Shown here in pieces: positions 2,575 through 39,938 of a DNA stretch of 64,000 bases (positions are counted from its first letter, which is position 1; each line of letters begins with the position of its first letter). Both the position numbers and the translations under genes were made by a program. Origin of the DNA: Moorellales bacterium (lineage in GTDB: Bacteria > Bacillota > DSM-521 > Neomoorellales > SLTJ01); contig JBNARC010000004.1 of the NCBI GenBank assembly GCA_049719955.1, forward strand, positions 16,782 through 80,781. Reading direction: 5' to 3'. The notes below the pieces were generated by a model. It had not been told where the DNA came from. It made no database searches and saw only the letters and a list, made by a program, of their open reading frames with translations.

Positions 2575-2594
2575 TCTTCGGGGGAAGATAAACG

Positions 2595-7078: not shown

Positions 7079-8782
7079 GTGAGGGTGGTGCGTAAGCGTC
7101 TGGGCGAACTCTTATTGGAGGCCGGTCTAATAACCAGCGAGCAGTTGGATAAGGCCCTGGCGGAGCAGAAGCGTACGGGCGAGCGGTTGGGCAAGGTGTT
7201 GATCCGCCAGGGCCTGGTTAAGGAACAGGACATCATCAATGTGCTCGAGTTCCAGTTGGGCATACCCCAAGTGCGGTTGGCTCCCGGCACCCTCGACCGG
7301 GAATTGGCCCGCATCCTGCCGGAACCGCTGGCCCGGCGGTACCAGGCGGTACCGGTGCGGTGGGAAGGCGGCCGGCTGGTAGTAGCCATGGTGGATCCCC
7401 TAAACGTGACCGCGGTCGACGACTTGAGGCTCAGGACCGGCCGAGAGATCCTACCGGCCATCGCTCCCGAAGCGGACATAGAGCGGGCCTTGGCCGAGCT
7501 CTACGGCCAGCCTCTATCCCTGGAAGAGTTGGCTACGGTAGAGGAGGGTGAGGGCGCGCGAGCGCTGCAGGCGGAAGTTTTTGACCTGGATCGACCGGCA
7601 GCCGCCGCTGGGGCCGAGGCCCCGGTGGTGCGGCTGGTGAACGGCCTGCTCCAGCAGGCCCTGCGGGAGCGGGCCAGCGACGTGCACCTGGAGCCGCAGG
7701 CGGAAGCAATCAGAGTCCGCTACCGGGTGGACGGTACCCTGCGGCCGGTCATGACCCTGCCTAAGACCCACCACGCCCCCTTGGTTTCGCGAATAAAGGT
7801 CATGGCGGGCATGGACATCGCCGAAAAGAGGCTTCCCCAAGACGGTCGGGTGCAGATCCGGGTGGCGGGCCGGCAGGTAGACCTCAGGGTGTCCACCCTT
7901 CCCACCATTTTCGGGGAAAAAGTGGTGATTCGCCTTCTCGACCGCACCTCCGCCTATCTGGCGTTGGACGAGCTGGGCTTTGGGCCCAAGGCGCTGTCCC
8001 GGTACCGGGAGTTGGTCCGCCGCAGTTACGGCATGATTCTGGTTACCGGCCCGACGGGCAGCGGTAAGACCACCACCCTATACGCTACCTTGAGGGAAAT
8101 CAACACCCCGGAGAAGAACATCATCACCATAGAAGACCCGGTAGAGTACGTGCTGGAGGGCATTAACCAGATCCGGGTCAACCCCAAAGCCGGGCTTACC
8201 TTTGCTTCCGGGCTGCGCTCCATCCTGCGCCAGGACCCGGACGTGATCATGGTGGGGGAGATTCGCGACCGCGAAACGGCGGACATCGCCATCCGCTCCG
8301 CTAATACCGGGCACCTGGTGCTCAGCACCATGCACACCAACGACGCCGCCGGGGCGGTCACCCGCCTGCTCGACATGGGAATTGAACCGTTCCTGGTGGC
8401 CTCCTCGGTGATCGGGGTGGTGGCCCAGAGGCTGGTGCGCACCTTATGCCGCCACTGCCGGCGGCCTTACGAGGTACCGGCGGAGGCGGAAGAGCGGCTG
8501 CTCCTGGGCGAACCTCCGCACACGCCTCTGACTCTATATCGGGCCGTAGGTTGCCCGGAGTGCGGGGGGACGGGTTATCGTGGCCGCACCGCCATCCTCG
8601 AGGTCATGCCCATGACCGGTGCTTTGCGGCGCCTGGTTTTGGCGCGCGCTTCCAGCGAGGAAATCGCCGCCCAGGCCGTGGCCGAAGGCATGGTAACCTT
8701 ATGGCGGGACGGGCTGGAGAAGGCCCGCCAGGGTCTGACCACCCTGGAGGAGGTAGTGCGGGTGGCGTACGCCGGCGAATGA
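7079..8782 (+). CDS. pilB: type IV pilus assembly ATPase PilB (GspE family) with an N-terminal MshEN c-di-GMP-binding domain
   Basis: Contains Walker A 'GPTGSGKTTTLYA', 'RQDPDVIMVGEIRD' and the C-terminal tetracysteine 'CRHC...CPECGG'. The N-terminus carries a tandem 24-residue RLGxxLLxxGLI....L...L..Q motif. Confidence 0.92.
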   Translation: MRVVRKRLGELLLEAGLITSEQLDKALAEQKRTGERLGKVLIRQGLVKEQDIINVLEFQLGIPQVRLAPGTLDRELARILPEPLARRYQAVPVRWEGGRLVVAMVDPLNVTAVDDLRLRTGREILPAIAPEADIERALAELYGQPLSLEELATVEEGEGARALQAEVFDLDRPAAAAGAEAPVVRLVNGLLQQALRERASDVHLEPQAEAIRVRYRVDGTLRPVMTLPKTHHAPLVSRIKVMAGMDIAEKRLPQDGRVQIRVAGRQVDLRVSTLPTIFGEKVVIRLLDRTSAYLALDELGFGPKALSRYRELVRRSYGMILVTGPTGSGKTTTLYATLREINTPEKNIITIEDPVEYVLEGINQIRVNPKAGLTFASGLRSILRQDPDVIMVGEIRDRETADIAIRSANTGHLVLSTMHTNDAAGAVTRLLDMGIEPFLVASSVIGVVAQRLVRTLCRHCRRPYEVPAEAEERLLLGEPPHTPLTLYRAVGCPECGGTGYRGRTAILEVMPMTGALRRLVLARASSEEIAAQAVAEGMVTLWRDGLEKARQGLTTLEEVVRVAYAGE

Positions 8783-8801: not shown

Positions 8802-9845
8802 GTGGACCTCGACGCGGTCCTGCGCGAGGCGGTAGAGCTGGGGGCCTCGGACGTACATATTACCGTGGGCCTGCCGCCGGTGTTCCGGATCCACGGCCAG
8901 TTGCGACGGCAGGACCACCTTCCGGTGGTGACCCCGTTGGTGGCCGAGCAGGTATTGCGCTCCCTGGTGCCGGAAGAGCTTTACCAGCGCTTTCAGAAGA
9001 CCGGCGACCTGGACTTCGCCTATTCCCTGGCCGGAGTGGGGCGTTTTCGGGTCAACGCCTTTAAGCAGCGGGGGAGCGTGGGCCTGGCTATGCGACTGAT
9101 AAATACCCGCATTCCCACTCTGGAGGAACTGGGCCTGCCGGCGGTGGTGGCGGAACTGGCCCGGCGGCCCAAAGGGCTGGTGCTGGTCACCGGCCCTACC
9201 GGCAGCGGCAAGTCCACTACTCTGGCGGCCATGATCGGGCTTATCAATCGGGAGCGGGCCTGCCATATCGTGACCCTGGAAGACCCCATCGAGTACGTGC
9301 ACCGGCACGGAAAGAGCGTAATCAATCAGCGAGAGGTTGGCAGCGACACCCTGAGCTTCGGGCAGGGGTTGCGGGCGGCTCTGCGGGAGGACCCGGACGT
9401 TATCATGGTGGGAGAGATGCGGGACCTGGAAACCATCTCCACTGCCATCACCGCCGCGGAGACCGGTCACCTGGTGCTGGCCAGCCTGCATACCGCCAGT
9501 GCCGCTCAAACCGTAGACCGCATAATCGACGTGTTTCCTCCCCACCAGCAGTCCCAGATCCGGGTGCAACTGGCCGACACGCTGGAGGGAATCGTCGCCC
9601 AGCAGTTGCTGGCCCGCGCCGACCGGCCCGGCCGGGTGGTGGCGGTGGAAGTGCTGGTGGCCACCCCGGCGGTGCGCAACCTGATCCGGGAGGGCAAAAG
9701 CCACCAGCTTCTCTCCGTGATGCAGACCGGCGCCCGGTACGGCATGTGCACCATGGAGGCCTCGGTACGGGAGTTGGTGCGGCAGGGCAAGGTGACGGCC
9801 GAGGAGGCGGCCCGGGTGCTGGGCAGCCTGGCAGGCGCCTACTGA
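8802..9845 (+). CDS. pilT: twitching-motility (retraction) ATPase PilT
   Basis: Contains 'GPTGSGKSTTLAAMI', 'REDPDVIMVGEMRD' and 'TGHLVLASLHT'. Length is 347 aa. Confidence 0.9.
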   Translation: MDLDAVLREAVELGASDVHITVGLPPVFRIHGQLRRQDHLPVVTPLVAEQVLRSLVPEELYQRFQKTGDLDFAYSLAGVGRFRVNAFKQRGSVGLAMRLINTRIPTLEELGLPAVVAELARRPKGLVLVTGPTGSGKSTTLAAMIGLINRERACHIVTLEDPIEYVHRHGKSVINQREVGSDTLSFGQGLRAALREDPDVIMVGEMRDLETISTAITAAETGHLVLASLHTASAAQTVDRIIDVFPPHQQSQIRVQLADTLEGIVAQQLLARADRPGRVVAVEVLVATPAVRNLIREGKSHQLLSVMQTGARYGMCTMEASVRELVRQGKVTAEEAARVLGSLAGAY

Positions 9846-9870: not shown

Positions 9871-11094
9871 GTGCCTACCTACCGTTACCGGGCGCGCGAT
9901 GCCCGTGGCCGGCTTCACATCGGTACGCTGGAAGCAGAGAGCGAGGTGGCCGTGACCCAGGAACTGCGTCGGCAGCAGTTCTTCCCGGTGGAGGTGAGGC
10001 TCCAGCAGCGTGTGGGCCTCCCCTCCCTAGCCTGGTCAAAGGAAGGGTGGTTTTCTCCCCGGCCTAAGAGCGGCGACCTGGCTTTCTTGTGCCGCCAGCT
10101 CGCCACCCTGGTGGGGGCGGGAGTGCCGGTGGTGCCGGCCCTGCGGGCGCTGGCCGAGCAGACGGCCAACCGGGCGCTTAAGCTGGCCCTGCGCGGGGTG
10201 GTGGGGCGGGTGGAGGGCGGCGCGGCGCTGGCCGAGGCCCTGGACGCCTTTCCCCGCATCTTCCCCCGCCTGATGGTGCGCATGGTGGCGGTGGGCGAAG
10301 TGGGCGGCGTGCTGGACGAGGTGTTAGAGCGCCTGGCCGCACATTTTGAACGAGAGCACGAACTGTACCAGAAGATTCGTTCTGCCCTCACCTACCCGGC
10401 GTTCGTTTTTCTAGCCGCCGTGGCGGTAGTGATTTTTCTCTTCCTGTCCGTGCTTCCCGTCTTTGGGCGGATGCTGGCCTCTCTTAACGTGCCGCTGCCC
10501 CTGCCTACGCTGGTGATTTTGGGCATCGGGGAAGCAGGGCGAAAGTATTGGTATTTTGCACCCCTGCTTCCCGCGGTGGCAGCTTTAATTGTCCGGCAAC
10601 ACCGCTCCACGCCAGGGGGGCGGAAGTGGTGGGATCAACGTCTTCTTTACTTACCGCTAGTGGGCGGGCTGTACCGGCAAGTAATAGTGTCCCGCTTCAG
10701 CCGGAGTCTAAGCACGCTCCTGCGGGGCGGCGTGCCGTTGCTTCAGGCCTTGGAGGTACTGAAAGGGATACTGGGCAACCTGGTCATGGAGGAGGGGCTA
10801 GACCAGGTCCAGGAAGCCATCCGTCGCGGCGAAAGCTTGGTCGCAGCTTTGGAACGAACCGGACTATTCCCGCCAATGGTCACCCAAATGATCGCTGTAG
10901 GCGAGGAATCGGGCACGCTGGACGCCCTCCTGGAGCGGGTCAGCATATTTTACGACCGGGAGGTGGAGGCAGCTACCGCTCGGCTATCCAGCCTGATAGA
11001 GCCCATACTGATCCTGGTGATGGGCGGGGTGGTAGGTACGGTGGTGGTTTCGGTGTTGCTGCCCATGCTGACCGTAGTGCGGAACGTACGTTAG
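9871..11094 (+). CDS. pilC: type IV pilus platform protein PilC (T2SS F family)
   Basis: The 407-aa protein has two T2SF repeats ('FPRLMVRMVAVGEVGGVLDEVLERL' and 'FPPMVTQMIAVGEESGTLDALLERV') and three hydrophobic segments. Confidence 0.9.
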   Translation: MPTYRYRARDARGRLHIGTLEAESEVAVTQELRRQQFFPVEVRLQQRVGLPSLAWSKEGWFSPRPKSGDLAFLCRQLATLVGAGVPVVPALRALAEQTANRALKLALRGVVGRVEGGAALAEALDAFPRIFPRLMVRMVAVGEVGGVLDEVLERLAAHFEREHELYQKIRSALTYPAFVFLAAVAVVIFLFLSVLPVFGRMLASLNVPLPLPTLVILGIGEAGRKYWYFAPLLPAVAALIVRQHRSTPGGRKWWDQRLLYLPLVGGLYRQVIVSRFSRSLSTLLRGGVPLLQALEVLKGILGNLVMEEGLDQVQEAIRRGESLVAALERTGLFPPMVTQMIAVGEESGTLDALLERVSIFYDREVEAATARLSSLIEPILILVMGGVVGTVVVSVLLPMLTVVRNVR

Positions 11095-11204: not shown

Positions 11205-11302
11205 GAGGATACCGAAAGGGCAAACCCGGCGAAAGTCGGGGGCGCAAAGCCGCGGGCCTAAGGACCGAGGGCGGGTCTAAGGTGGCCGGGCTGCCGAAGT
11301 CG
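11205..11302 (+). promoter_or_regulatory. c-di-GMP-I (GEMM-I) riboswitch aptamer
   Basis: 'AAAGGGCAAACCCGGCGAAAGUCGGGGGCGCAAAGCCGCGGGCCUAAGGACC...GGUCUAAGGUGGCCGGGCUGCCGAAG' aligns almost position for position with the Vibrio Vc2 aptamer. Shared elements are GGGCAAACC, a GAAA tetraloop, GGGACGCAAAGCC, CCGGCCUAA and GGUAGCGGGGUUACCGA. Confidence 0.85.
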
Positions 11303-11331: not shown

Positions 11332-11550
11332 GCGGGCGGACAGAAGCGGGGGTGAGGAAGGAGGAAAGGGAAGGACGGTTGAAGCCCAGAATACGTAGCG
11401 GCGTGCTTCGGTCTTCGGCTACTTAAGTAACGGTGGTGCGAGAAAAGCTGTGGACTGGGCGGCAAATGCGGCCCGACATCGGAAAACATCAAGAGGTACT
11501 TAGAGGTTCGACCCAACGGAAAGTTTGATTTGGTAAGGAGGCGAGTGGGA

Positions 11551-11970
11551 ATGCGTTGGATGCGGAGGCAACTTAACCGCGCCCGTCGTGACCGGGGTTT
11601 CACGCTCATTGAGTTGATGGTGGTTATAATCATTATCGGCATCTTGGCTGCTATTGTCCTGCCGAACTACTTGGACTTGGGAGAGAAGGCCAAGAAGGGT
11701 CGGGCCAAAGGGGAGCTGAAGGCCCTGGGTGCGGCAGTCGGGCTTTATCGTGCGGATAAGGGTGTGTGGCCGGAGGATACCGACCTGGAAGGCAACCTCG
11801 AGGACTATGGTTTTAGCGAGCGGCCTGACGATCCATGGGGAAAGGAATACAAGTGGGATAAGAACAATAAGTACATCTACAGCCTAGGTCCTAACGGGGA
11901 ATGGAATAGCTACGGTGGGGATGACATTTATTACGATGCTAATAAGCAGAAATTCGGACCCAATATCTAG
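11551..11970 (+). CDS. pilA: major type IV pilin (GspG/PulG-like pseudopilin fold)
   Basis: ATG 11551 follows TAAGGAGG. The prepilin leader 'MRWMRRQLNRARRDRG|FTLIELMVVIIIIGILAAIVLPNY' is present, and the C-terminal 'DPWGKEYKW...GPNGEW...GGDDIYY' is T2SS-G-like. Confidence 0.9.
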   Translation: MRWMRRQLNRARRDRGFTLIELMVVIIIIGILAAIVLPNYLDLGEKAKKGRAKGELKALGAAVGLYRADKGVWPEDTDLEGNLEDYGFSERPDDPWGKEYKWDKNNKYIYSLGPNGEWNSYGGDDIYYDANKQKFGPNI

Positions 11971-12028: not shown

Positions 12029-12781
12029 GTGGAACAGGGGCTGGTTGTTATACTCGGCCTGGCAGTAGGAAGTTTCCTCAATGTGTGCATCTATCGTCTT
12101 CCCAGGGGGGAATCATTGGCGTTCCCCCCTTCTCGTTGTCCGACCTGTGGACACCGGTTGGCGCCGCAGGATTTGGTGCCGGTGCTGAGCTACCTATGGC
12201 TCAGGGGGCGCTGCCGCTACTGCGGGGAGAGGATCTCCCCTCTGTATCCCCTGGTGGAGCTGGGTGCCGGCGGCCTTTTTGGGCTACTCTACAGCATGTA
12301 TGGGCTTTCACCCGAGCTGATAAGCCGGCTAGTGCTGGCCTCGGGACTCCTGGTGGCGGCAGTGATTGACCTGCGCCATTACCGGATTCCCAACCAGTTG
12401 GTGGTGTTTCTGACTGTCGCCGCGCCCCTCCTTAACCTGTGGACCCGCGAACTCCCCTGGTGGCAGGTGCTGGCCGGCGCGGCGGTGGGGGCGGGGATTC
12501 TGGGGGCGTTGGCCGTCTTGAGCCGGGGCGGCATGGGCGAGGGAGATGTGAAGTTGGCCGCGGCTACTGGCCTCTACCTGGGTCCGGCGGGCCAGGTCCT
12601 GGCCATATTTCTGGCCGCGGCCGCGGGGGCCATGGTGGGGGGAGTGCTGATCGCGAGCGGCCGCAAGAAGCGCCGGGATCCTATTCCTTTTGCGCCCTTT
12701 TTGGGCATCGGTAGCTTCATTACTTACGTGTGGGGAGCGGACTTGTGGCGGCTTTATCTTTCCTGGGCGGGCCTAATGTAG
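12029..12781 (+). CDS. pilD: prepilin peptidase / N-methyltransferase (A24 family)
   Basis: Contains 'GSFLNVCIYRLP', the zinc motif 'CPTCGHRL...CRYCGERI', and the catalytic regions 'AAVIDLRHYRIPN' and 'GMGEGDVKLAAATG'. Confidence 0.9.
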   Translation: MEQGLVVILGLAVGSFLNVCIYRLPRGESLAFPPSRCPTCGHRLAPQDLVPVLSYLWLRGRCRYCGERISPLYPLVELGAGGLFGLLYSMYGLSPELISRLVLASGLLVAAVIDLRHYRIPNQLVVFLTVAAPLLNLWTRELPWWQVLAGAAVGAGILGALAVLSRGGMGEGDVKLAAATGLYLGPAGQVLAIFLAAAAGAMVGGVLIASGRKKRRDPIPFAPFLGIGSFITYVWGADLWRLYLSWAGLM

Positions 12782-12848: not shown

Positions 12849-14993
12849 GTGCGATACCAAGGTGAAACCGGACGCGAGGTGTTGCTTTTGCCCGGGCGGG
12901 TGGTCACTATGGAGGGGCAGCAGGCCGGCGAGAGTTCGGCGCGAGCCTCTCCCGTGGCCTTTGCTCGCGCCCTATGGTCCAGGTCGGTTTGGCGGGAGCA
13001 AAATTACGCCTTCCTGGTCCTGCTAGCTGCGGTGGGTCTACTGCCCCTTTTCCACAATGGGTACCAGCATCCCGCCACCAGGTGGGTGGGGTTCGCAGTG
13101 GCGGCCGCTACCTTCTGGGCGGCCGGAGGCGAACCGAAGTACAAATCCTTGTCTACCAGACCGGCAACCGACGTCCGGGTCTTTGCGGCCGTTCTTGCCT
13201 ACGTGCTCTGGGCGGGCGGGAGCGTTTTTTGGTCAGTGAACCGGACGAATTCGCTAGGGGAATGGTTTTACCTGGGCACCTACGGGTCGGCCTTCTACCT
13301 TGCCTACGGTTACCTTTCCCGCCAGGAAGCCGCCAAGCTGGTTCGGTTTCTCGTAATCTTTGGCTCCCTACTTTCCGTTGCCGGCATCGCGGAGTACTTG
13401 CTTCTGAACCCTGGCCGGATAGTCGCAACCTTCATAAACCCCAACCCTCTCGGTGGGTACCTGGCCATGCTTTGCCTACTGGCCCTGCCCCGGTGGCTTA
13501 CGGCGGCGGAAAACGGTCGCGGTCGGTGTTTTCTTTTCGGCGGTCTGGGCGCCTTTGCCGTCCGTCCGGCGCTCTCCCTTGCTTTGTTGCTCATGCTAAC
13601 CGGTTTGGCCCTCACCGGGTCCCGCGGAGCCTGGATGGCTTTTGCCTTCGGCTCTGCAGCGCTGTTTATCTTGCGCCCCCGGGCCCGGAGCTTGCGAGTG
13701 GGGTGCGCCTTCGGCCTGCTGCTGGCCGTGGTAGCGCTGGTCGCCGTAGGTCTAGCGCATATCGCGGCCTGGTTACAGCAAACTGAAGGGGCGCGGTGGC
13801 TTGCCGGGAGGCTTCTAGAGGCCAACCTCATCCGGGCGGAGAGTTTCGGCTCTAGCTCCGTCGGTGGTCGTCTTTCCTTTTGGGGGGTGGCACTCCGAGA
13901 GGCGGCGGCGCGACTGCTAACCGGCTTCGGCCTGGGCAATTATCATGAGGTCTACTTCCTCTATTGGCCGGGAGACGAGTTTTACTCCAAGTACGCCCAT
14001 AACCACTATCTCCAGACCGCTGCCGACCTAGGCCTTCCCGGGGCCATCCTCCTAGCCCTGGCCTTGTCCCTCTTGGCCACGGCTCTATGGGGCCGGGTTC
14101 GGCGTTTGCGGGCGCACCCCCTTCCCCTAGGCCTGTTTGCCTCCTGCCTTGCCTTCCTGTTTCATAGCGGGGTGGACTTCACCTGGGATATGCCCGCCGT
14201 AACCCTCACCTTTTGGGTGCTGGCCGGAACCGCCTTGGGGCTGAGTCGCAACCATAGGGTCCCAACAGGCATGAACCGATACCGAGTGGCCTTCCGGGCG
14301 GTGGCGCTGGCCACGGCACTTCTGGCCGTCCACGCCTGGGTGGTAGACCACTATTTGAATCTAGGAGTGGAGGCGGCCCGGGAAGGCGAAAGCTCTCGAG
14401 CGTTGGCGTCGTGGCAAAAGGTCGAGGTGCTGGCGCCGTGGTCGCCTGCTCCCTGGTACTATAGGAGTCGGCTTTGGACCGGGGAGCCGAACCGGGGGGA
14501 GAGGGCGGCGGCCGAGGCGGTTAGACGTTCTCCCTACGATAAGGATCTTCGCCTAATACTGGCCCGCTTTCAGGAGCAGCTCGGCCATATGGAAGCAGCC
14601 GAAGAGAATCTGCGCCTGGCCCTGAGTCTGGGCGGTTACTACCCTGGTCCCCATCTTACCTTGGGACAATTCTATTTGCGTCAGGCTCGGTGGTCGGAGG
14701 CGGAAGAGGTAATGGCCCGGGGCCTGGCATTGAAGGACTTCGCCCTGGCCCGGGCTCCTAACGCCAAGGAGACAGCGCGCCTGGAGGAGCAGATCCTGGG
14801 GCTGCGACTGGGTCTGAGCCGGGCCTACGCAGAACAGGGGCGCTTCGAGGCGGCGGTGCAGCAGCTTACCGAAGTGCTGCGGGCTCACCCCAACCATGAG
14901 GCGGCGCGGCAACTACTGGAGCGTTACCGCGCCCAAGCGGCGATGGCCACCGAGCAGGAAAGGCTTCCTCAGATGTCGAATGGGGGCTACTGA
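12849..14993 (+). CDS. polytopic O-antigen ligase-like (Wzy_C) membrane protein with a C-terminal TPR domain; candidate pilin O-oligosaccharyltransferase
   Basis: The 714-aa protein has at least 10 hydrophobic helices. The Wzy_C signature 'YAHNHYLQTAADLGLPGAILL' is present. C-terminal TPR-like repeats include 'LTLGQFYLRQARWSEAEEVMARGLAL' and 'YAEQGRFEAAVQQLTEVLRAHPNHEAA'. The start is uncertain (GTG 12849 or ATG 12909). Confidence 0.75.
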   Translation: MRYQGETGREVLLLPGRVVTMEGQQAGESSARASPVAFARALWSRSVWREQNYAFLVLLAAVGLLPLFHNGYQHPATRWVGFAVAAATFWAAGGEPKYKSLSTRPATDVRVFAAVLAYVLWAGGSVFWSVNRTNSLGEWFYLGTYGSAFYLAYGYLSRQEAAKLVRFLVIFGSLLSVAGIAEYLLLNPGRIVATFINPNPLGGYLAMLCLLALPRWLTAAENGRGRCFLFGGLGAFAVRPALSLALLLMLTGLALTGSRGAWMAFAFGSAALFILRPRARSLRVGCAFGLLLAVVALVAVGLAHIAAWLQQTEGARWLAGRLLEANLIRAESFGSSSVGGRLSFWGVALREAAARLLTGFGLGNYHEVYFLYWPGDEFYSKYAHNHYLQTAADLGLPGAILLALALSLLATALWGRVRRLRAHPLPLGLFASCLAFLFHSGVDFTWDMPAVTLTFWVLAGTALGLSRNHRVPTGMNRYRVAFRAVALATALLAVHAWVVDHYLNLGVEAAREGESSRALASWQKVEVLAPWSPAPWYYRSRLWTGEPNRGERAAAEAVRRSPYDKDLRLILARFQEQLGHMEAAEENLRLALSLGGYYPGPHLTLGQFYLRQARWSEAEEVMARGLALKDFALARAPNAKETARLEEQILGLRLGLSRAYAEQGRFEAAVQQLTEVLRAHPNHEAARQLLERYRAQAAMATEQERLPQMSNGGY

Positions 14994-15002
14994 GGGAGGA
15001 AT

Positions 15003-15506
15003 ATGCTGAAGATCAAGCGCCCTTGGCCTAGTGTGTCTGGATGTCCTGGTTTTACCCTTTTGGAGGTCCTAATGGTGGCGGTAATTTTGGGGATTCTGGC
15101 TGCCACCGTGGCCCCCCAGGGTGCGGCGCTAGTACAGTCCTACCGGCTAAAGGAGGCGGCGGAAATGGTGGCCGCCGATCTCCGGCTGGTACAGCAGCGG
15201 GCGGTGGCCGGTGAGGGCCGGAACTGGCGCCTAATCTTCAACCTGGGAGGCAACCGGAGCCGATACCTGGTACAGCAGGGTACCGGGGGAGTGAACCTGA
15301 TCCGGGACTTGCCTAAAGGCATAGTTTTCGACGGAGACATCAAGGTTGGGGCAGCGTACAATGAGGTGTGGTTTGACTTAGAGGGTACGCCTAACTCCGG
15401 GGTGGTGGACATCGTCATCCCCCTGAAGGACGAGCAGAGCGGCCGTTATCTTTTTGTCCAGGTTGGCGGGACTACCGGTCGAGTATCGGTTACCGAGCGC
15501 CTGTAG
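15003..15506 (+). CDS. minor pilin (GspH/FimT-like), prepilin-type N-terminal cleavage/methylation domain
   Basis: The leader 'PG|FTLLEVLMVAVILGILAATVAP' is present, in pilus-operon context. Confidence 0.8.
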   Translation: MLKIKRPWPSVSGCPGFTLLEVLMVAVILGILAATVAPQGAALVQSYRLKEAAEMVAADLRLVQQRAVAGEGRNWRLIFNLGGNRSRYLVQQGTGGVNLIRDLPKGIVFDGDIKVGAAYNEVWFDLEGTPNSGVVDIVIPLKDEQSGRYLFVQVGGTTGRVSVTERL

Positions 15507-15543: not shown

Positions 15544-15993
15544 ATGGGGCGAACCGGGCCAAGGAAGAGGGTACGCGAGGATGGTTTTACTCTTATAGAA
15601 GTACTTGCGGCCCTGGCCATTCTGGCCGTAGCCCTGATACCACTTATGGATGTATTCGGGCAGAGCCTAAGACTGGGAGAGCAGGCAGGCGAGGAAAGTG
15701 TTGTAACCTATCTGGCGCAGGAAAAGATGGAGCAGTATCTCTTCTGGTTCCGCCAGCACCGAGGCCAGGGTCTGGAACTTCGGGCCAAGCTCGAGGCGGA
15801 TCACGTTGACCTCGATCCTGACGACGGCGAGGATCCCGAGTTTCGGCCTTTAGACGATTTCCCCGGCTACGCCTATCGGGCCTGGTTGGCTCCGGAATAC
15901 GGTAACGGCGAAGCCAGGCAGTTGCGGCGGCTTAAGGTGGAAGTTAGGGGGCCAGAGGGCCGGCCGGTCGTGCTAACCACTTTGGTTTGGTGA
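15544..15993 (+). CDS. minor pilin (PilV/GspI-like)
   Basis: The leader 'REDG|FTLIEVLAALAILAVALIPL' is present. Length is 149 aa. Confidence 0.8.
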   Translation: MGRTGPRKRVREDGFTLIEVLAALAILAVALIPLMDVFGQSLRLGEQAGEESVVTYLAQEKMEQYLFWFRQHRGQGLELRAKLEADHVDLDPDDGEDPEFRPLDDFPGYAYRAWLAPEYGNGEARQLRRLKVEVRGPEGRPVVLTTLVW

Positions 15994-16006: not shown

Positions 16007-16588
16007 ATGGTGAATCATCAGTCCCTGAGAAGGTCGCCTGGAGGACAGAGGCGGTTGCGCCTTGGCGACGGCGGGTTTACGCTTCTGGAGGCCCTCTTGG
16101 CTGCCATGTTGATGGTAACCGTCGTGGCCTCGGCCTACGTCCTGCTTGAGCAAGGGGCGCTCTCGTGGCAGGTGCAGGCCGACCGGCGGGAGGCCCGGGA
16201 GAACTTGCGCGTGGCCCTGGCCAGAATAGGTAAGTACGCCCGGGAAGCCACGGGAGTAAAGGTAGAGGCCAACGGAGCCGCGCTCACCCTTTCCTGGTAC
16301 GATCTGAGTAACGCTCAGTGGAAGCAAATCCGCTACCAGGTAATGCGGGGCGCCCTTTGGGAAGGGCGCCGCAACAAGTCCGGTCCGGAATGGGTATCTA
16401 CGCCCAACCCTTCGACCGACTACGTCTGGAAGGTGTTGGCCGAGCGCATAGTGGAAGCCCGGTTTACGACCGAGGGAAACGGAGACGCCAGGCTGGTGAG
16501 CGTGGGGCTGGTCGCGAGGGACCGTCGCGGAGTTGAGCAGGCGGTGAGTACCAAGTTAATGGCGCGGGTGGTCTCGGTGAATCCGTAG
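16007..16588 (+). CDS. minor pilin (PilW/GspJ-like)
   Basis: The leader 'GDGG|FTLLEALLAAMLMVTVV' is present. Length is 193 aa. Confidence 0.8.
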   Translation: MVNHQSLRRSPGGQRRLRLGDGGFTLLEALLAAMLMVTVVASAYVLLEQGALSWQVQADRREARENLRVALARIGKYAREATGVKVEANGAALTLSWYDLSNAQWKQIRYQVMRGALWEGRRNKSGPEWVSTPNPSTDYVWKVLAERIVEARFTTEGNGDARLVSVGLVARDRRGVEQAVSTKLMARVVSVNP

Positions 16589-16638: not shown

Positions 16639-17862
16639 GTGTGGGGTGATGAACGCCTGAGCAGCGCAGCGAGTCGGCCCTGCTGGATTGAGGATCAGGG
16701 CGTGACCCTGATGACCGTCCTCGTGGTTCTAACCGTATTATTGGGGTTGGGCCTGGCGGCCTTGGCTCTTACCCTGATCCATAAAGATATCAGTCGCACG
16801 GAGGTGCGAAGCCTGCAGGCCTTCTACGCCGCCGAAGCGGGCATCCAGGCGGCCCTGGCCCAATTAGCGGCCAGCCTTGAATGGCCGGGGTATGACCCTT
16901 CTAGAGGGATAGGCAGCTTACCGGCGATTGCCGATCAACTGGAGGGTGCCCGGATCAAGGAGATTCTGTTGACGCCTCAGGGAGAAGTGTTGCAGGTTGA
17001 GGCCCGGGGCGAGGCTGGTGACCTCACCCGCCGGGTGGCGGCTTTGCTTCGGAAGCCTGCCTGGGCTTTCGGTTTGATTCTTTACCAGGCCACGGCACCG
17101 GTGAGCATCGGAGGTAACTCTTACCTGCGAGGCACTTTTATCTTTGCCGGCGACGTTACCATCGGGTCGTCCGTGCAGGTGGGGGATTCCCAGGCCAGAG
17201 ACGGGTGGATTATCTCCGGTGGCAATGTAGTCAACAAGGGAGTGGTTTACGGCGGGGTGAAAGCTCGGGGAGTGGTTGACAATTCTCAGGGAACGATCGT
17301 GGGGGTTCTGGAACAGCGGGCGGAAGTCTTCATTCCTCCGGTTACGGCTCCAGATCTACAGTATTACTACATCCGCGCCGACGAAAGGTTGGCCGAACCG
17401 GATGGCGAGGTTGAGTTGACGGGTGAGGCCCTGCAGGCTTTCATCAATGCCGGAAAACGTATTGTTTACGTGGACGGAGATCTGGTTTTGGACGAAAAGG
17501 GTAACCGCAACATCGTTTACGAGGGACAAATCGCCCTCGTGGCCAGCGGTAGTATAGAAATAAGAGCAGATGTGGTCAGGGGGCCCGGAACCCAAGAGAC
17601 TAGCGTCTTGGCCTTAATCGCTGGTGGAAACATTATAGTGCACAACCAGGAAGTGGAAGCTCTGCTATGGGCGGGCGGTGAGCTTTGTACCTACGGTAAT
17701 CCCTCCATACGCGGAGCGGCGGTAGCGGCCACCTTAGAGGCAAGCGGTGGGTGTAACCTCACCTATGACCTTATCCTTACCAGTCAGTTTTGGAATAGCT
17801 TTCTCTTGCCGCCGGACGAGTTCGGCCTTAAGATGGTACGCTGGTGGGCGAAGGGGTCGTAG
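16639..17862 (+). CDS. large PilX-like minor pilin / putative tip protein with a Gly/Val-rich beta-solenoid-like C-terminal region
   Basis: The N-terminus 'GVTLMTVLVVLTVLLGLGLAALALTLIH...AFYAAEAGIQAAL' resembles a PilX_N-type anchor and lacks Glu5. The C-terminal 250 aa contain repetitive G-x-V/I strands. Confidence 0.7.
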   Translation: MWGDERLSSAASRPCWIEDQGVTLMTVLVVLTVLLGLGLAALALTLIHKDISRTEVRSLQAFYAAEAGIQAALAQLAASLEWPGYDPSRGIGSLPAIADQLEGARIKEILLTPQGEVLQVEARGEAGDLTRRVAALLRKPAWAFGLILYQATAPVSIGGNSYLRGTFIFAGDVTIGSSVQVGDSQARDGWIISGGNVVNKGVVYGGVKARGVVDNSQGTIVGVLEQRAEVFIPPVTAPDLQYYYIRADERLAEPDGEVELTGEALQAFINAGKRIVYVDGDLVLDEKGNRNIVYEGQIALVASGSIEIRADVVRGPGTQETSVLALIAGGNIIVHNQEVEALLWAGGELCTYGNPSIRGAAVAATLEASGGCNLTYDLILTSQFWNSFLLPPDEFGLKMVRWWAKGS

Positions 17863-17873
17863 GGGGGGGCCAT

Positions 17874-18881
17874 TTGATTCCCTTTGTTCACTTTCGAAAG
17901 AAACGATATATTGGCTTTGACCTGGGAGCCAGGGGGGTGCGGGCGGTAGAGGTGCAGGGCCGTGCCGGAAGTTGGCAGGTGAGTTCCGCCGTGGTTCACC
18001 CCTTACCGCCGGGGGCGGTCCGAGATGGGATGGTATTGGTGCCGGATAAGGTGGTCGCTGCCCTAGATAAACTTGCGGCCGAGCAAGGGTGGAAAGGTCG
18101 CAGGGTATTTGCCTCCGTCGGTGGTAGCCGTCTCATTACCCGGCATTTACGTCTCCCCCTCATGCCCCGGGAGGAACTGGATAAGGCCGTACGTTACGAG
18201 GCCGAGCAGTACCTGCCTGTGGGGACAGCGGAACTCAGCACGGATTTCGCCGTGCTGGGGAAGGAGCAAGATGGGGAAGGGGAGAAATTGGAGGTACTGC
18301 TGGCCGCTGTTCCCCTGGATACGGCGCGCACCTACGCCGAGTTGTTCGAGGCCGCCGGGCTATCCTTGATGGCGCTGGACATCGTGCCCCTGGCCTGGCA
18401 GCGGGTGTTGGTCGCCGCGCTGGGCGATTCCCTGGCCGATCAGGCGGTAGGGGTGCTGGATCTGGGATATTCCTGTACCCACATTGTGATACTCTATGGC
18501 TCCCGGGTGGAACTGTGCCGCTCGTTACCGCAGGGGTGGGGTGTGGCAGAGGCGAGTTCAGCGGCTTACGAGGCCGCGGCGGCCATGGCTCCGCCTGTGC
18601 CTCCGGCGCCGTCTGCGGGGACGGCCCTGGAGGAGGTCTTAGGAAGCATCTTGAACGAGATGCGTCGGTCGGTGGACTTTTTTCGTGTCCAGAGGCGGTC
18701 GGCAGTTTGGGGGAGTCTCTACCTTGGCGGTGCGTTAGGCGGGTCTTCTGAGGTATGCGCTTTGCTTGAGGCGGAGATCGGGGTGCCAGTTAAGCCCTTT
18801 TGGCCCTTAGCGGAGGGTCTGGTAGCCGATCCAGAGTTGGTGGTAGCGCTTGGAACCGCCCTGCGGCAGGTGATACCCTAG
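17874..18881 (+). CDS. pilM: type IV pilus assembly protein PilM (actin-like ATPase fold)
   Basis: Contains 'KKRYIGFDLGARGVRAVEV' and 'YEAEQYLP'. TTG 17874 follows a G-rich Shine-Dalgarno sequence. The track ORF starts at GTG 17844, overlapping the previous gene; either start is possible. Confidence 0.85.
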   Translation: MIPFVHFRKKRYIGFDLGARGVRAVEVQGRAGSWQVSSAVVHPLPPGAVRDGMVLVPDKVVAALDKLAAEQGWKGRRVFASVGGSRLITRHLRLPLMPREELDKAVRYEAEQYLPVGTAELSTDFAVLGKEQDGEGEKLEVLLAAVPLDTARTYAELFEAAGLSLMALDIVPLAWQRVLVAALGDSLADQAVGVLDLGYSCTHIVILYGSRVELCRSLPQGWGVAEASSAAYEAAAAMAPPVPPAPSAGTALEEVLGSILNEMRRSVDFFRVQRRSAVWGSLYLGGALGGSSEVCALLEAEIGVPVKPFWPLAEGLVADPELVVALGTALRQVIP

Positions 18882-19423
18882 TGCCAGCGGTCAATCTTCT
18901 ACCTCTTGAGCTCCGACCTCCTTCCCAAGGTGTCTCCGGGCGCCGGTTGGCACTTGTGGCCGCGTGTCTGGCCGCAGCCGCGGTTACGGGCCTGGCAGCC
19001 GCCAGTTATTGGCGTCTGACCCGGGAGTTACAGGCGGTTACCGCGGCCAGGGTGGAGCTGGCAGAGGTGGCGGCGGAAGCCGAGGAGTTGGAACGGGAGT
19101 TGAGTCAGATCGAGCAGGAGCGGACGGCACTACAGGAGGTATGGCAGAAGCGTTTTTCGTGGTCGCGCTTCCTCTCGGATTTGTGGGCCAGCTTGCCCTC
19201 AGGGGTATGGCTGACCGATCTTTCGGTAAAGGGTTCGGAGCTAACCCTGCAGGGAGGTGCCGCCTCAGCCGGTAACGTAGCTCAATTCCTCCAACGGCTG
19301 GTGCTAGTCGCCGGGGTCCGGGCACCCCAGTTGGTTAAGTTGGAAGGTAACCCGGGGCTGAGATTTACCGTAAAGGCGACGCTGGAAAGGCCCTTGCTTC
19401 CGGAGCGAGGAGAAGGGGATTGA
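18881..19423 (+). CDS. pilN: type IV pilus assembly protein PilN
   Basis: GTG 18881 overlaps the pilM stop (TAGTG). The protein begins 'VNLLPLELRP', followed by a single TM helix and a coiled coil. Confidence 0.8.
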   Translation: MPAVNLLPLELRPPSQGVSGRRLALVAACLAAAAVTGLAAASYWRLTRELQAVTAARVELAEVAAEAEELERELSQIEQERTALQEVWQKRFSWSRFLSDLWASLPSGVWLTDLSVKGSELTLQGGAASAGNVAQFLQRLVLVAGVRAPQLVKLEGNPGLRFTVKATLERPLLPERGEGD

Positions 19424-20265
19424 CTCGAACGGCACGGGAGAAATATCTATTGGCTGCCCTTTGTGTGGTCCTCGGAACCGTGGCTTTTTACCGGCTAGGG
19501 GTGGGCATAGCGTGGCCTCGTTACCTAGAGCTCCGGGAGAGGCTGGTCACGGAAATCGAAACTCTGGCTCAAACCCGGCGTGAGGTCCAGCGTCTGCCCG
19601 CGCTTAAAGAGGAGGTTGCTGGAGCCAGGATTAAATTACGAGAGTTGCGACAACCCTTCGAAGCGGTGGGGCGGGAAGGAGCCTTGACCTACCTTCTGCA
19701 TTTGCTGCCCGCGGGTGTGCAGCTCAGAGAATTGGTGCCGGAAACAGATGAAGATAAAGGCTATTATCGGGTTTCCCCGGTGCGCCTTAGGCTGGTTGGC
19801 CCTTTCCCCGAAGTACAGGTGTTTCTGGACAAGCTCGAGGCTCTCCCGGTTTACATTCGCGACTTGCGCATGGGCCCGGTCGAAGACGGATCGGGAATCG
19901 AAGTAGAGGTGAAACTGGATTTGTTCTTCCGGTCCGTGGCGCCTGCGGCGGCATCGTCGCGGCAGGTATTTGGGGTGGCCTTGAGAGACCCTTTTGCGGC
20001 CCCAATCGAAGCTGTGTCCACAGAGCCTCGGGCGGCCGTTACGGGCGGTACCACAGGAGCGCAGACTGAAGTGAGGAAAGTACACGGGCGAGTTCCGGAA
20101 GGCGGTGCCAGTGAGGCTGCGGCTGTAGTAGCCTCCCCAAGAGAGGTTTCGGACGGTCGTCGGCAGGAGGAGGAAGCCACAACACCGGAAGCGTCGTACG
20201 TCTGGCCTAAAGGAGAGGGGCCGGACGCCCTCAACCGCCAGTACACCTTCCCGGTGCGGCGGTGA
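19420..20265 (+). CDS. pilO: PilO-like pilus assembly protein with an extended Ala/Glu-rich C-terminus
   Basis: The start overlaps the pilN stop (TTGA). It has an N-terminal TM helix, a coiled coil and a PilO-like core ('LELRERLVTEIETLAQTRREVQRLPALKEE'). Confidence 0.7.
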   Translation: MTRTAREKYLLAALCVVLGTVAFYRLGVGIAWPRYLELRERLVTEIETLAQTRREVQRLPALKEEVAGARIKLRELRQPFEAVGREGALTYLLHLLPAGVQLRELVPETDEDKGYYRVSPVRLRLVGPFPEVQVFLDKLEALPVYIRDLRMGPVEDGSGIEVEVKLDLFFRSVAPAAASSRQVFGVALRDPFAAPIEAVSTEPRAAVTGGTTGAQTEVRKVHGRVPEGGASEAAAVVASPREVSDGRRQEEEATTPEASYVWPKGEGPDALNRQYTFPVRR

Positions 20266-20298: not shown

Positions 20299-21084
20299 AT
20301 GACCCGGGGTGGCGCGCTCTGGAAATGGTGGATGCTCGGGTTGGCGCTTTGGGCAGGGGTGGCCGTAGCGCCGGCCCTGGCCGGTACCAAATGGACCCCC
20401 GTCCGCGTCGCGGCGCTTTTCGGACCCTTGCGGGTGGTGGTTAACGGTCGGGATTGGCAGCCGGAAGTTAAGCCGTTCCTTCTCCAGGAGCGGGGCACGA
20501 TAATGGTCCCGCTGCGGGAACTGGCGACGGAGCTAGGGGTGCCGGTGCGCTGGGACCAGGCTACGGGCACGGTCTACGTCGGGTCTGCAGACGCGGCTGG
20601 GGGTTCGCCTTCCGGCGCGGGCTCCCCGGCGCCGGCCGCTTCCGGCTCCGCGTATGCGTGGCTGGAAGAACTGACGGTGCTCCGCAATATTGGCCCCTTT
20701 TACCAGCAGCCCCGGCGGAACTTCATGGTGGCGGCCCGACCCTTCAACCGGGGGGTGGCGGTGGAGCTGGACGGGAAAGAGGAGGCAGAAGTGGTAGTAG
20801 ACCTGGCCGGGCGCTACCAGAGCGCGGAAGGCTACCTGGGCATCGAGGACGCCACCTGCAACAGCCGGGGCGGAGCCACGGTGTCCTTTTATGCCGACGA
20901 CCGGTTGGTTTATACCTCCCCGTTGCTGAAGCCCTCTCAATACCCGTTTTTTGTGAGTAGCCGCCAGTTGGGAGGGTTAGCCGGGGTGAAACGATTGCGC
21001 GTACAGGTGCATTGGCAGGAAGTAGGGCTGGGGGACTACGACCGGGTGGTTGTGGTGTTGGCTCGTTTTCGCTTTTTCCGCTGA
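20299..21084 (+). CDS. secreted protein: copper-amine-oxidase-N-like domain plus NPCBM-like carbohydrate-binding domain
   Basis: A signal peptide 'WWMLGLALWAGVAVAPALA' is present. 'GTIMVPLRELATELGVPVRWDQATGTVYV' resembles Cu_amine_oxidN1. The C-terminal 'YLGIEDATCNSRGGATVSFYADDRLVYTSPLL' resembles NPCBM. Confidence 0.65.
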   Translation: MTRGGALWKWWMLGLALWAGVAVAPALAGTKWTPVRVAALFGPLRVVVNGRDWQPEVKPFLLQERGTIMVPLRELATELGVPVRWDQATGTVYVGSADAAGGSPSGAGSPAPAASGSAYAWLEELTVLRNIGPFYQQPRRNFMVAARPFNRGVAVELDGKEEAEVVVDLAGRYQSAEGYLGIEDATCNSRGGATVSFYADDRLVYTSPLLKPSQYPFFVSSRQLGGLAGVKRLRVQVHWQEVGLGDYDRVVVVLARFRFFR

Positions 21085-21102: not shown

Positions 21103-22416
21103 ATGCCTAACTGGCCTGGGTTGGTGGCGGCAGGGGCGGCGGCCGGGGTGGCGGTGGCTCTGTACCGGCAGAACCGGAGACTGCGGCGGGCCCGCTCGGC
21201 TTTGGAGCAAAAGGTCCGGGAACTGGCGGAGCGTAACCGGCTTCTGGAGGGGCTAGCGATAACCGACGGGCTTACCGGACTTTACAACCGCCGCTACTTC
21301 GAGCAGCGCCTGGCGGAGGAGATAAGCCGCTGCCAGCGGTACGAATCGGTGCTGGCGCTGGCCATGATCGACGTGGACTACTTCAAGTGCTACAACGACG
21401 CCTTGGGACACGTAGAGGGCGACCGGGTGCTGCAGGATCTGGGCGGCCTGCTCCGGGAGAGCGTGCGGGAAGGAGACGTGGTGGCCCGCTACGGCGGGGA
21501 TGAGTTTGCCGTCATCTTCGTAGAAATGGATTCTTTGGTGGCGCAGAAGGCCGGCGAGCGCATCCGGGAGAACATCGAGGCCTACGCCGCCAGGCTGGTA
21601 GGCTCCGGCTCGGGCGCGGCGGAAGAGCTGTTGACCGTTTCCGTGGGCATTGCCAGCTTTCCCAAGGACGCCGAGACCGCCGAAGAACTCATCAGCAAGG
21701 CCGACCAGGCCCTGTACCGGGCCAAGGAGGGCGGGAAGAACCGGGTGGTGGTCTACCAGTCTCCCCTGGAGGAGCTGGCCCAGGGGACGGAGATACCGGA
21801 GCAAGAAGAGGAAGAGGGCGACCTTGCCCTCCACCTCATGCGGGCCATACGCTCCATCCTCCTTTCCATCAACGCCCGCGACCGCTACACCTACGGCCAT
21901 TCCCAGCGCACCACCCGTTACGCCGAGGCCCTTTCGCGCCGCCTGGGGCTGGCTCCGGAGCGCGTGCGGCTGGTCAAGCGCGCCGCCCTGCTGCACGACG
22001 TGGGCAAGGTCAACATCGATAAAGAGATCCTTATTAAGTCTAAGCCCCTTTCTGCGGAAGAGAGGGAGATCATCAGGCGCCATGCCCTCATGAGCGCGCA
22101 GATAATCGAGCCGGTTAAGGAGCTGGCCCGGGTAATTCCCATTGTGGAGCAGCACCACGAGCGCTACGACGGCAAGGGCTACCCCCGAGGTCTGGCCGGT
22201 GAAGAGATTAGCCTTGAGGCCCGCATCCTGGCCATTGCCGACGCTTATGATGCCATGCGCTCCCCGCGGCCCTATCGCGACGCCCTAAGCTTTGCCGAGG
22301 CGGTAGCGGAACTGCGCCAGGGGGCGGGCACGCAGTTCGACCCTCACCTGGTAGAAGCGTTCATAGAAGTGATTCGGGAGCTGGAGATGGGGGCTGCCGG
22401 TCGGCCTCGCGCCTGA
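21103..22416 (+). CDS. membrane-anchored diguanylate cyclase (GGDEF) fused to an HD-GYP phosphodiesterase domain
   Basis: Contains 'DGLTGLYNRRYF' and 'RYGGDEFAVIF', with an RxxD I-site ('REGD') five residues upstream of GGDEF. The HD-GYP part has 'LLHDVGK' and 'HHERYDGKGYPRGL'. Confidence 0.9.
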   Translation: MPNWPGLVAAGAAAGVAVALYRQNRRLRRARSALEQKVRELAERNRLLEGLAITDGLTGLYNRRYFEQRLAEEISRCQRYESVLALAMIDVDYFKCYNDALGHVEGDRVLQDLGGLLRESVREGDVVARYGGDEFAVIFVEMDSLVAQKAGERIRENIEAYAARLVGSGSGAAEELLTVSVGIASFPKDAETAEELISKADQALYRAKEGGKNRVVVYQSPLEELAQGTEIPEQEEEEGDLALHLMRAIRSILLSINARDRYTYGHSQRTTRYAEALSRRLGLAPERVRLVKRAALLHDVGKVNIDKEILIKSKPLSAEEREIIRRHALMSAQIIEPVKELARVIPIVEQHHERYDGKGYPRGLAGEEISLEARILAIADAYDAMRSPRPYRDALSFAEAVAELRQGAGTQFDPHLVEAFIEVIRELEMGAAGRPRA

Positions 22417-39377: not shown

Positions 39378-39938
39378 ATGGCTAAGTCCGGGGTTTCCGG
39401 TCGAAGGGCATTGCTTGCAGGTAGCGGTGCCTTTTTTTTGGCCGCCTTGGTAGGGGCCGGTTCTCAAACGGTGGTCGGCAACCTCGCCTCGTTGCCGCTG
39501 GCTTTCGGCCTGCTGCTGATGGTGGTTCTTGCAGGCATAATTTTTGATATAATTGGCGTAGCGGCCACGGCGGCGCGGGAAACCGGACTTCACGCTAAAG
39601 CCGCGCGTCGGGTGGCCGGTGCCAAACAGGCGTTGAACCTGGTGCGCAACGCCCACCACGTGGCCAGCTTTTGCAACGACATGGTGGGCGACATCTGCGC
39701 CACCCTCAGCGGCGCCATGGGAGCGGTGATAGTCTTTCGGCTGGCCGAGCCGGAAAACCGGTTGTGGGCAGGCATACTGATGACCGCCGCTATTTCCGGC
39801 GCTACCATCGGGGGTAAGGCCTGGTGCAAGGGGTTGGCCATCGGTCGGGCGGATGAGATCACCTTCCAGGTGGGCCGCCTCCTCTACGGACTGCAGCAGG
39901 GACTGATGACTTTGGGCAGACGGAAAGGGAAGCGATAA
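39378..39938 (+). CDS. oapA: OLE-associated protein A-like small four-helix membrane protein
   Basis: The 186-aa protein has four hydrophobic segments. Its stop overlaps the dxs ATG (TAATG). It lies immediately downstream of the large non-coding region. Confidence 0.65.

Follow-up and report, generated by a model that had tools for sequence, protein, structure and literature searches.

The window analysed here is a stretch of 64,000 nt from a Moorellales bacterium (assembly GCA_049719955.1, contig JBNARC010000004.1, positions 16,782–80,781 of the forward strand). A gene at window positions 12849–14993, inside a type IV pilus operon, encodes a polytopic membrane protein with an O-antigen-ligase-like domain (Wzy_C) and a C-terminal array of tetratricopeptide repeats (TPR). 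The protein has the fold of the O-antigen ligase WaaL and retains the WaaL catalytic triad, and both its domain order and its position in the pilus operon are conserved in distant Bacillota. With moderate confidence it is interpreted as a pilus-dedicated WaaL-fold oligosaccharyltransferase, whose outward-facing TPR domain would dock a pilus protein, most likely a pilin that is modified at an internal site. The donor chemistry is deduced from homology with WaaL and PglL, and the acceptor is proposed solely from gene adjacency. Attachment of a lipid-carried sugar chain to a pilus protein, an activity with no description so far for Gram-positive pili, is the most likely function of this conserved pilus-operon gene of spore-forming Firmicutes.

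The open reading frame (ORF) is uninterrupted and encodes 714 aa if translation starts at the GTG in its first position and 694 aa if it starts at an in-frame ATG (12909). Homologues are not conserved N-terminal of the ATG position in the alignment. The start codon is uncertain from the sequence, with no bearing on the finding, and residue numbers given below count from the ATG. A preliminary description of this DNA placed a 714-aa polytopic protein between pilD and the minor pilins, and this arrangement is confirmed, with pilD upstream and four minor-pilin genes downstream. The Wzy_C signature that was also pointed out there is located at residues 362–382 (window 13992–14054), where the motif YAHNHYLQTAADLGLPGAILL shows the pattern H-N-x9-G-x2-G. 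The Pfam Wzy_C profile (PF04932) scores 71.8 bits on the protein against a cut-off of 31.7 (E = 7e-20), which excludes a chance match, and the same profile is matched by all 41 family members. By profile, catalytic residues and fold, the protein belongs to the Wzy_C/O-antigen-ligase-like superfamily (CAZy GT121-like).

A comparison of the family profile with the Protein Data Bank (PDB) shows a match to WaaL of Cupriavidus metallidurans (CmWaaL, 7tpg_B) at E = 6e-15 and a weak match to a Neisseria-type PglL structure (9rmk_A) at E = 2e-4. WaaL is reached by profiles A1 and A4 only; a phmmer search of the PDB with the single membrane-domain sequence gives no match. WaaL residues R191, R265 and H313 align with R239 (in TGSRG), R321 (in GGRLSFW) and H364 (in HNHYLQ) of the target, whose codons are at 13623–13625, 13869–13871 and 13998–14000. 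The same three positions also align in 9rmk_A. In WaaL, R191 and R265 bind the phosphates of undecaprenyl diphosphate (Und-PP) and H313 is the proposed activator of the acceptor (PMC10920833). Two of the triad residues, R321 and H364, are invariant among 41 full-length homologues with 21–71% identity to the target. The third, R239, is at least 90% conserved, as are the further outer-face residues R170, N179 and H419. A His at the acceptor-activating position is typical of the ligases, in contrast to the inverting Wzy-type polymerases of the clan, which use Asp or Glu there (PMC10920833); the invariant H364 therefore favours a ligase or oligosaccharyltransferase and disfavours a polymerase.

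The alignment of the 41 sequences was used for an AlphaFold2 model, which has a mean predicted local distance difference test score (pLDDT) of 90.2 and a predicted template modelling score of 0.89. Its best fold match in the PDB is again WaaL (7tpg_B, Foldseek E = 3e-6, TM-score 0.62 on the target), and the C-terminal part accounts for the remaining top matches, all of them to TPR proteins. The fold match and the intact Arg-Arg-His triad bear out the earlier assignment to the Wzy_C/WaaL-type enzymes. Mean pairwise identity is 41% in the catalytic loop, the best conserved region, and 24.5% in the TPR domain, the least conserved. At the sequence level this pattern fits a constant chemistry with a diverging acceptor, low conservation of TPR domains being common anyway.

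The membrane helices were counted from the helices of the AlphaFold2 model and the positive-inside charge pattern, as a Kyte-Doolittle hydropathy scan was unusable. Thirteen membrane helices are predicted. Arg-rich loops (74–85, 203–207, 256–260, 400–403 and 445–454) alternate with loops that contain conserved motifs (N50-G51-H54, R170...N179-P180, R239, 290–365 and H419...P429), and because the conserved catalytic motifs are placed outside as in WaaL, the N-terminus is placed inside. WaaL has 12 transmembrane (TM) helices (PMC10920833). The 13th helix of the target, directly preceded by the Arg-rich loop SRNHRVPTGMNRYR, returns the chain outward and would therefore put the TPR array on the outer face beside the catalytic loop. 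The C-terminal region had been described as either extracytoplasmic or cytoplasmic; the model and the positive-inside rule point to the extracytoplasmic side and away from the cytoplasmic one.

The presence of the repeats themselves is supported by Pfam and by the model. TPR_19 scores 42.5 bits (cut-off 25), TPR_2 35 bits (27) and TPR_8 26.2 bits (25.7), and TPR_14 is above its own cut-off. Matches of this region to the PDB with profile A1 are to TPR proteins and OGT, down to 1e-26. In the model the region consists of continuous paired helices from about residue 495 to 685 with pLDDT above 95, so the domain is about 210 aa in length rather than the 250 aa first estimated. A family-specific motif on the outer face, HSGVDFTWDMP, is invariant in alignments A1 and A4, and alignment A3 shows at least 90% conservation for its residues H419, F424 and P429.

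The family is confined to Bacillota as far as its named carriers show: Moorella glycerini/Neomoorella stamsii (WP_054935348), Calderihabitans maritimus (WP_088555139, counted from the protein alone), Metallumcola ferriviriculae and Proteiniclasticum ruminis (WP_313126607). Further named Bacillota carriers are a Tindallia metagenome-assembled genome (MAG) and a Desulfitobacteriaceae MAG, and relatives are also present in many other MAGs. A word-indexed homologue search under-sampled the family, with 15 and then 34 matches, and a contig scan with patterns from A1 that were too specific gave three loci. An exhaustive search with a hidden Markov model profile gave 566 cluster representatives at E < 1e-30, and approximately 45 of these are full-length proteins of 580–700 aa with the same architecture.

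Gene calls around the loci of eleven relatives reveal a conserved pilus context. The order pilB-pilT-pilC-pilA-pilD-[Wzy_C-TPR gene]-minor pilins-pilMNO-NPCBM is present in six of the eleven (L001, L002, L003, L004, L007 and L011), and in these loci, as in the window, only pilD separates the pilin gene from the Wzy_C-TPR gene. The layout of the pilus operon differs in L009, L092 and L093, yet the Wzy_C-TPR gene is still just downstream of the pilin gene or genes, directly in L009 and L093 and after a short extra ORF in L092. Relatives with identities down to about 24%, among them those of Moorella glycerini, Metallumcola ferriviriculae, Proteiniclasticum ruminis and many MAGs, remain just downstream of a pilin gene despite an otherwise rearranged operon. 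In L008, the locus of relative P0025, the Wzy_C-TPR gene (1172–3226) is outside the pilus genes, between a MerR regulator and aroC and upstream of aroC. It stays in the aro block that precedes pilB elsewhere, and the contig ends before the pilus genes. In L010, a short contig, the gene adjoins a GT4 glycosyltransferase.

A metagenome scan gave 23 strong loci with at least 3 kb of flanking sequence, which were scored by tblastn with the Pil proteins of the window and by a prepilin-motif search. Sixteen of the 23 are pilus-linked, 13 of them with core Pil protein matches. Absence of the gene from orthologous pil clusters, raised in the preliminary description as a possible outcome, is not what is found; even distant Bacillota keep the gene in its pilus-operon position. 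That it stays beside a pilin gene when the operon is rearranged is the strongest point in favour of a role related to pilins.

Three distant Wzy_C-TPR relatives in the protein databases have additional N-terminal domains. P0117 (988 aa) and P0120 (962 aa) begin with a GT2 glycosyltransferase, and P0170 (1002 aa) with a polyprenyl-phosphate sugar-phosphate transferase (PF00953). Judged by their predicted domains, these are single polypeptides that join a step of glycan synthesis (initiation or GT2 transfer) to the final transfer. Such fusions support a tie between the Wzy_C-TPR module and lipid-linked glycan pathways and are silent on the acceptor.

The layout of the operon suggests that the enzyme is produced together with the pilins. 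The pilC-pilA gap is 435 nt and contains an aptamer of the cyclic-di-GMP (c-di-GMP) class I type. The Wzy_C-TPR gene is 67 or 127 nt downstream of pilD, depending on the start codon, and 9 nt upstream of the first minor pilin gene. Neither of the gaps that flank it has a terminator-like site, and across the operon region such sites are no commoner than in shuffled sequence. Between the gene and its neighbours there is no promoter or terminator signal above chance. Co-transcription with the pilin genes is likely because of the short gaps, the lack of a terminator-like site and the riboswitch before pilA. The riboswitch probably controls one transcription unit that extends from pilA to the NPCBM gene and includes the Wzy_C-TPR gene.

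At this locus c-di-GMP could act at several points, i.e., the riboswitch, the MshEN domain of PilB and a protein with GGDEF and HD-GYP domains encoded at 21103–22416.

A mechanism can be proposed on this basis. Transcription with pilA and pilD behind the c-di-GMP-I riboswitch would ensure that the enzyme is made when the pilins are made. H364, on the long outer loop, would activate the hydroxyl of the acceptor, and the glycan would be moved en bloc with release of Und-PP, as homology suggests. The 13th helix would position the TPR domain outside, beside the catalytic loop, where it may dock the acceptor protein. The most probable acceptor would be the major pilin, while anchored in the membrane, or one of the minor pilins; an internal Ser, Thr or Tyr would be modified ahead of extraction of the pilin into the fibre.

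Several observations weigh against a pilin acceptor, or against the likeness to pilin-modifying enzymes. The mature part of the major pilin has only five Ser/Thr residues, one of which is in the buried FTLIE motif and another is the structural, invariant serine of the YS-GP motif. This pilin lacks any Ala/Ser/Pro-rich stretch of the kind seen in acceptors, and it ends in ...KFGPNI and not in Ser or Thr. Ten cognate pilins, whose genes are upstream of those of family members, end in I, L, W, L, L, L, N, N, K and E, and in no case in Ser/Thr. The sequon rule of TfpO/TfpM is therefore ruled out, and a pilin substrate would have to be modified at an internal site, as for PglL and PglS. The PglL_A domain (PF15864) gives no match at E ≤ 1 in the target and is outside the top 25 families of the 41 members. 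Wzy_C_2 (PF11846), the Pfam family of the C-terminal periplasmic domain of PglL/PglS, has no match in the target and is weak in five of the 41 members (best E = 1.3e-5). The family matches WaaL in sequence better (58 bits) than Neisserial PglL (23 bits). Seven of the 23 metagenome loci have no pilus genes within 8 kb, among them L029, an orphan among unrelated genes. No protein of glycan assembly (phosphoglycosyl transferase, flippase or glycosyltransferase) is found in approximately 50 ORFs scanned with Pfam, which cover most of the 64-kb window. The gene neighbourhood is compatible with another acceptor in the pilus machine or the wall as much as with a pilin. The preliminary description had read glycosylation of the pilins from the operon position; the conserved place in the pilus operon stands, and the acceptor part of that claim does not gain from the five Ser/Thr, the ten cognate C-termini or the PglL_A search. 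The pilin 'GP25' of Ruminococcus albus may be a glycoprotein, for which the papers covered give no confirmation.

WaaL of C. metallidurans (PDB 7TPG, CAZy GT121) is the closest known protein by both sequence and fold, with the Arg-Arg-His triad conserved residue for residue. The 12-helix core and the long outer loop after TM9 are common to both. WaaL differs in that it is about 400 aa in length and has neither the 13th helix nor a TPR domain. Its acceptor is the lipid A-core of diderm lipopolysaccharide (LPS), which would not be expected in endospore-forming Moorellales, and waaL genes are in LPS core loci whereas the target gene is in a pilus operon. Identity with WaaL in the strict sense is therefore rejected on the locus and on the envelope type expected from the taxon.

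Pilin-adjacent Wzy_C proteins that act as protein O-oligosaccharyltransferases (O-OTases) form four Gram-negative classes, TfpO, TfpM, PglS and PglL (PMC12645811, PMC9829042, PMC3643930). Together with the Gram-positive WsfB described below, they are the precedents for the favoured interpretation. PglL and PglS, the general and ComP-specific enzymes of Neisseria and Acinetobacter, share the Wzy_C core and the triad. Like the target they are comparatively large (about 550–620 aa) and carry an additional domain at the C-terminus, which in them is periplasmic. The genes are often beside pilin genes, and the enzymes glycosylate internal Ser/Thr residues of pilins (PMC3643930, PMC9829042, PMC12645811). 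If pilins are the substrate here, the TPR domain would be the counterpart of the larger periplasmic C-terminal domain of PglS in the role suggested for the latter (PMC9829042). The target differs in its monoderm host, in its canonical TPR array at the C-terminus and in the lack of a PglL_A match. By PglL_A, the marker that separates PglL from WaaL, membership in the PglL class is rejected. TfpO (also named PilO) and TfpM of Pseudomonas, Acinetobacter and Moraxella also have Wzy_C and are encoded just downstream of the cognate pilin gene, to which they are dedicated, acting on its C-terminal Ser/Thr. These enzymes are about 425–460 aa without a C-terminal domain, in contrast to the 694–714 aa, 13th helix and TPR domain of the target. 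The location downstream of a pilin gene agrees with this class; size, domain content and sequon do not, and the assignment is rejected.

Among Firmicutes, the enzymes to compare are WsfB of Paenibacillus alvei and WsaB of Geobacillus stearothermophilus. By its published description WsfB combines Wzy_C with a C-terminal TPR; in Geobacillus the TPR protein, WsaA, is separate and encoded by the adjacent gene wsaA. WsfB glycosylates tyrosines of the S-layer protein, and WsfB/WsaB-type protein O-OTases act on Tyr, Ser or Thr (PMC2943079). Their genes belong to S-layer glycosylation (slg) loci that also hold genes for glycan synthesis, and they modify the S-layer protein, whereas the target gene is in a pilus operon; no slg-type genes are found among the window ORFs scanned with Pfam. 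The statement in the preliminary description that a fused TPR module is foreign to the characterised Gram-negative enzymes was too strong, as PglL and also the Gram-positive O-OTase WsfB are reported to have a C-terminal TPR motif (PMC2943079) and a few family members show the weak Wzy_C_2 matches mentioned above.

In open-access text, no paper is found that describes a Wzy_C-TPR gene in the pil operons of Firmicutes. Glycosylation, O-antigen ligases and TPR proteins are all absent from a 2019 review of type IV pili in monoderm bacteria. All examples of the O-OTase classes in a 2025 review (TfpO/PilO, TfpM, PglS and PglL) are Gram-negative (PMC12645811).

The most serious alternative, tentative and somewhat unlikely in our judgement, is an active WaaL-type ligase with an acceptor other than a pilin: a cell-wall polymer, a membrane glycolipid or a protein of the machine (for instance the NPCBM protein or the tail of PilO). 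The benefit to the pilus would then be indirect, e.g., through a glycan held by the NPCBM protein of the operon. The intact triad is equally compatible with such an enzyme, and the greater similarity to WaaL than to PglL and the absence of a recognised sequon in the pilin favour it. Ligation to the wall has been proposed by the CAZy authors for Gram-positive GT121 (PMC10920833), and some family members are found alone, away from pil genes. The gene for the NPCBM protein, which has a carbohydrate-binding module and is encoded at the end of the operon, is conserved in Moorella-type operons (L001–L005, L007 and L022), and NPCBM is fused to PilO in Moorella glycerini (L011, 15439–16779). In the window, a low-complexity scan shows a long Ala/Ser/Thr/Pro/Glu-rich C-terminal tail in the pilO-like product, and the NPCBM protein has the linker SADAAGGSPSGAGSPAPAASGSA; these stretches resemble the acceptor regions of PglL and may by analogy accept a glycan. 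Such low-complexity PilO/NPCBM stretches are found only in high-GC Moorellales loci (the window, L001, L002 and L011) and are absent from L003, L004 and L007, and the linkers are therefore rejected as universal acceptors. A non-pilin acceptor is further disfavoured in that the gene stays beside a pilin gene in L009, L092 and L093, which have pilMNO and NPCBM at another location or not at all, and in that the characterised Gram-positive Wzy_C enzymes in the literature covered are protein O-OTases only (PMC2943079).

It is possible that the glycan made by the Wzy_C-TPR enzyme is bound by the pilus machine itself through NPCBM. An elaboration of this idea, which we consider unlikely, is that the enzyme and the NPCBM protein together form a glycan-based wall anchor for a pilus machine that has no secretin, with the fibre undecorated. 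At the site of assembly, the Und-PP-linked glycan would be ligated to the wall or to a component of the machine, and binding of this glycan by the NPCBM protein would fix the PilMNO platform to the thick Gram-positive envelope. If true, the two proteins would make up an enzyme/lectin pair so far unrecognised in the accessory gene set of these monoderm type IV pilus operons.

A non-catalytic, structural assembly factor, in which a membrane anchor presents a TPR scaffold across the thick wall in the manner of PilF/PilW or TadD, is very unlikely. The gene stands among the assembly genes of the operon, the protein has a weak match to NCBIfam type_IV_pilW (E = 2.6e-4, far below the cut-off), and a relative has the Joint Genome Institute (JGI) name 'O-antigen ligase/Flp pilus assembly protein TadD'. 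These PilW and TadD matches represent generic TPR similarity, and the strong conservation of the triad and of R170, N179 and H419, in a family whose catalytic loop is its most conserved region, is what an active enzyme would show. Also highly improbable is a role as a Wzy-type polymerase whose product, an exopolysaccharide, would share its control by c-di-GMP with the pili. Pfam Wzy_C includes some polymerases, the riboswitch and the GGDEF/HD-GYP gene are at the locus, and the Calderihabitans relative is named 'O-antigen polymerase' in UniRef. The acceptor-activating residue is the His of ligases and not Asp or Glu (PMC10920833), however, WaaL is the best match by both fold and sequence, and no Wzx, Wzz, phosphoglycosyl transferase or glycosyltransferase is found in the operon, in the Pfam-scanned window ORFs or, save L010, in the related loci. 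An IctB-type bicarbonate transporter, after the JGI name of the 71%-identical P0002 ('putative inorganic carbon (HCO3-) transporter'), can practically be dismissed: fold, triad, TPR domain and operon context point to glycan transfer, and the label is an annotation carry-over from a cyanobacterial protein of the Wzy_C family.

The pilus-dedicated oligosaccharyltransferase, the favoured interpretation, would be the first candidate for such a family in Gram-positive bacteria. The finding adds a conserved WaaL-fold enzyme, probably co-regulated by c-di-GMP, to the pilus operon of Moorellia, Desulfitobacteriia-like and Clostridia lineages, and it bears on the function of GT121-type ligases in bacteria without LPS. 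Several carriers are cultured, which makes the idea directly testable. A thermophile enzyme that recognises an internal site and has a separable TPR acceptor module may also be of use in bioconjugate engineering.

The features of the locus are collected in Table 1.

Table 1. Positions in the window of the pilus operon genes, the riboswitch aptamer and the parts of the Wzy_C-TPR protein
Feature	Position	Strand	Evidence or remark
pilB, pilus extension ATPase with MshEN c-di-GMP-binding N-terminal domain	7079–8782	+	Pfam T2SSE, MshEN; NCBIfam type_IV_pilB, 647 bits
pilT, retraction ATPase	8802–9845	+	NCBIfam pilT_fam, 482 bits
pilC, platform protein	9871–11094	+	Pfam T2SSF, twice
c-di-GMP-I riboswitch aptamer in the pilC-pilA gap	11209–11298	+	Rfam RF01051, 81 bits (gathering score 35), full-length match
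pilA, major pilin, GspG-like	11530–11970	+	Pfam N_methyl, T2SSG
pilD, prepilin peptidase	12029–12781	+	Pfam A24_N_bact, Peptidase_A24
Wzy_C-TPR membrane enzyme gene	12849–14993	+	714 aa from GTG 12849 or 694 aa from ATG 12909; 13 predicted TM helices
Wzy_C domain, residues 224–382	13578–14054	+	Pfam
HSGVDFTWDMP (H419, D423), family-specific outer-face motif between TM11 and TM12	14163–14195	+	Alignments
13th TM helix, extra relative to WaaL	14271–14348	+	Model helix 455–491, membrane part 455 to about 480
TPR domain, about 5–6 repeats, residues about 481–690	14349–14978	+	Pfam TPR_19, TPR_2, TPR_8, TPR_14
Minor pilin, GspH-like	15003–15506	+	Prepilin-type gene
Minor pilin, GspI-like	15544–15993	+	Prepilin-type gene
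Minor pilin, GspJ/ComGE-like	16007–16588	+	Prepilin-type gene
Minor pilin, PilX_N/DUF7305	16639–17862	+	Pfam/NCBIfam matches
pilM	17844–18881	+	Pfam PilM_2
pilN	18800–19423	+	Pfam PilN
pilO-like gene	19420–20265	+	Assigned from position and homologous loci
Secreted Cu_amine_oxidN1 + NPCBM protein, final gene of the operon	20299–21084	+	Pfam; signal peptide; Ser/Ala/Pro/Gly linker

The type IV pilus operon is complete and is nested in genes of the shikimate pathway (aro). The true start of the major pilin is probably the ATG at 11551 (MRWMRR...), judged by comparison with homologues in alignment A2. The operon is followed on its 3' side by the GGDEF/HD-GYP gene, tldD/pmbA, aroQ, efp and the spoIIIA operon. 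The closest database protein to the Wzy_C-TPR protein, with 99% identity, is from a Moorellales MAG and is annotated with 714 aa at NCBI. Since the spoIIIA operon follows and the nearest protein is from Moorellales, the host is an endospore-forming Firmicute. The Gram-positive host assumed in the preliminary description is thus backed by spoIIIA and spoIVB, both within the window, and by the Moorellales label.

Two other features of the window are separate from the pilus operon. An ORF of 656 aa (604–2574, + strand) is located between thiI and the HAD-phosphatase/aroE genes, and its sole Pfam match is Phage_int_SAM_1 at residues 452–537. A complete ornate large extremophilic (OLE) RNA is present at 38736–39346 on the + strand (Rfam RF01071, 495 bits). 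Its setting is the usual one, with xseA (35947–37473) and an ispA-like polyprenyl synthetase gene (37709–38599) upstream and a 186-aa ORF and dxs (39938–41830) downstream. The 186-aa ORF (39378–39938) has no Pfam match and stands where the gene for an OLE-associated protein such as oapA is usually found.

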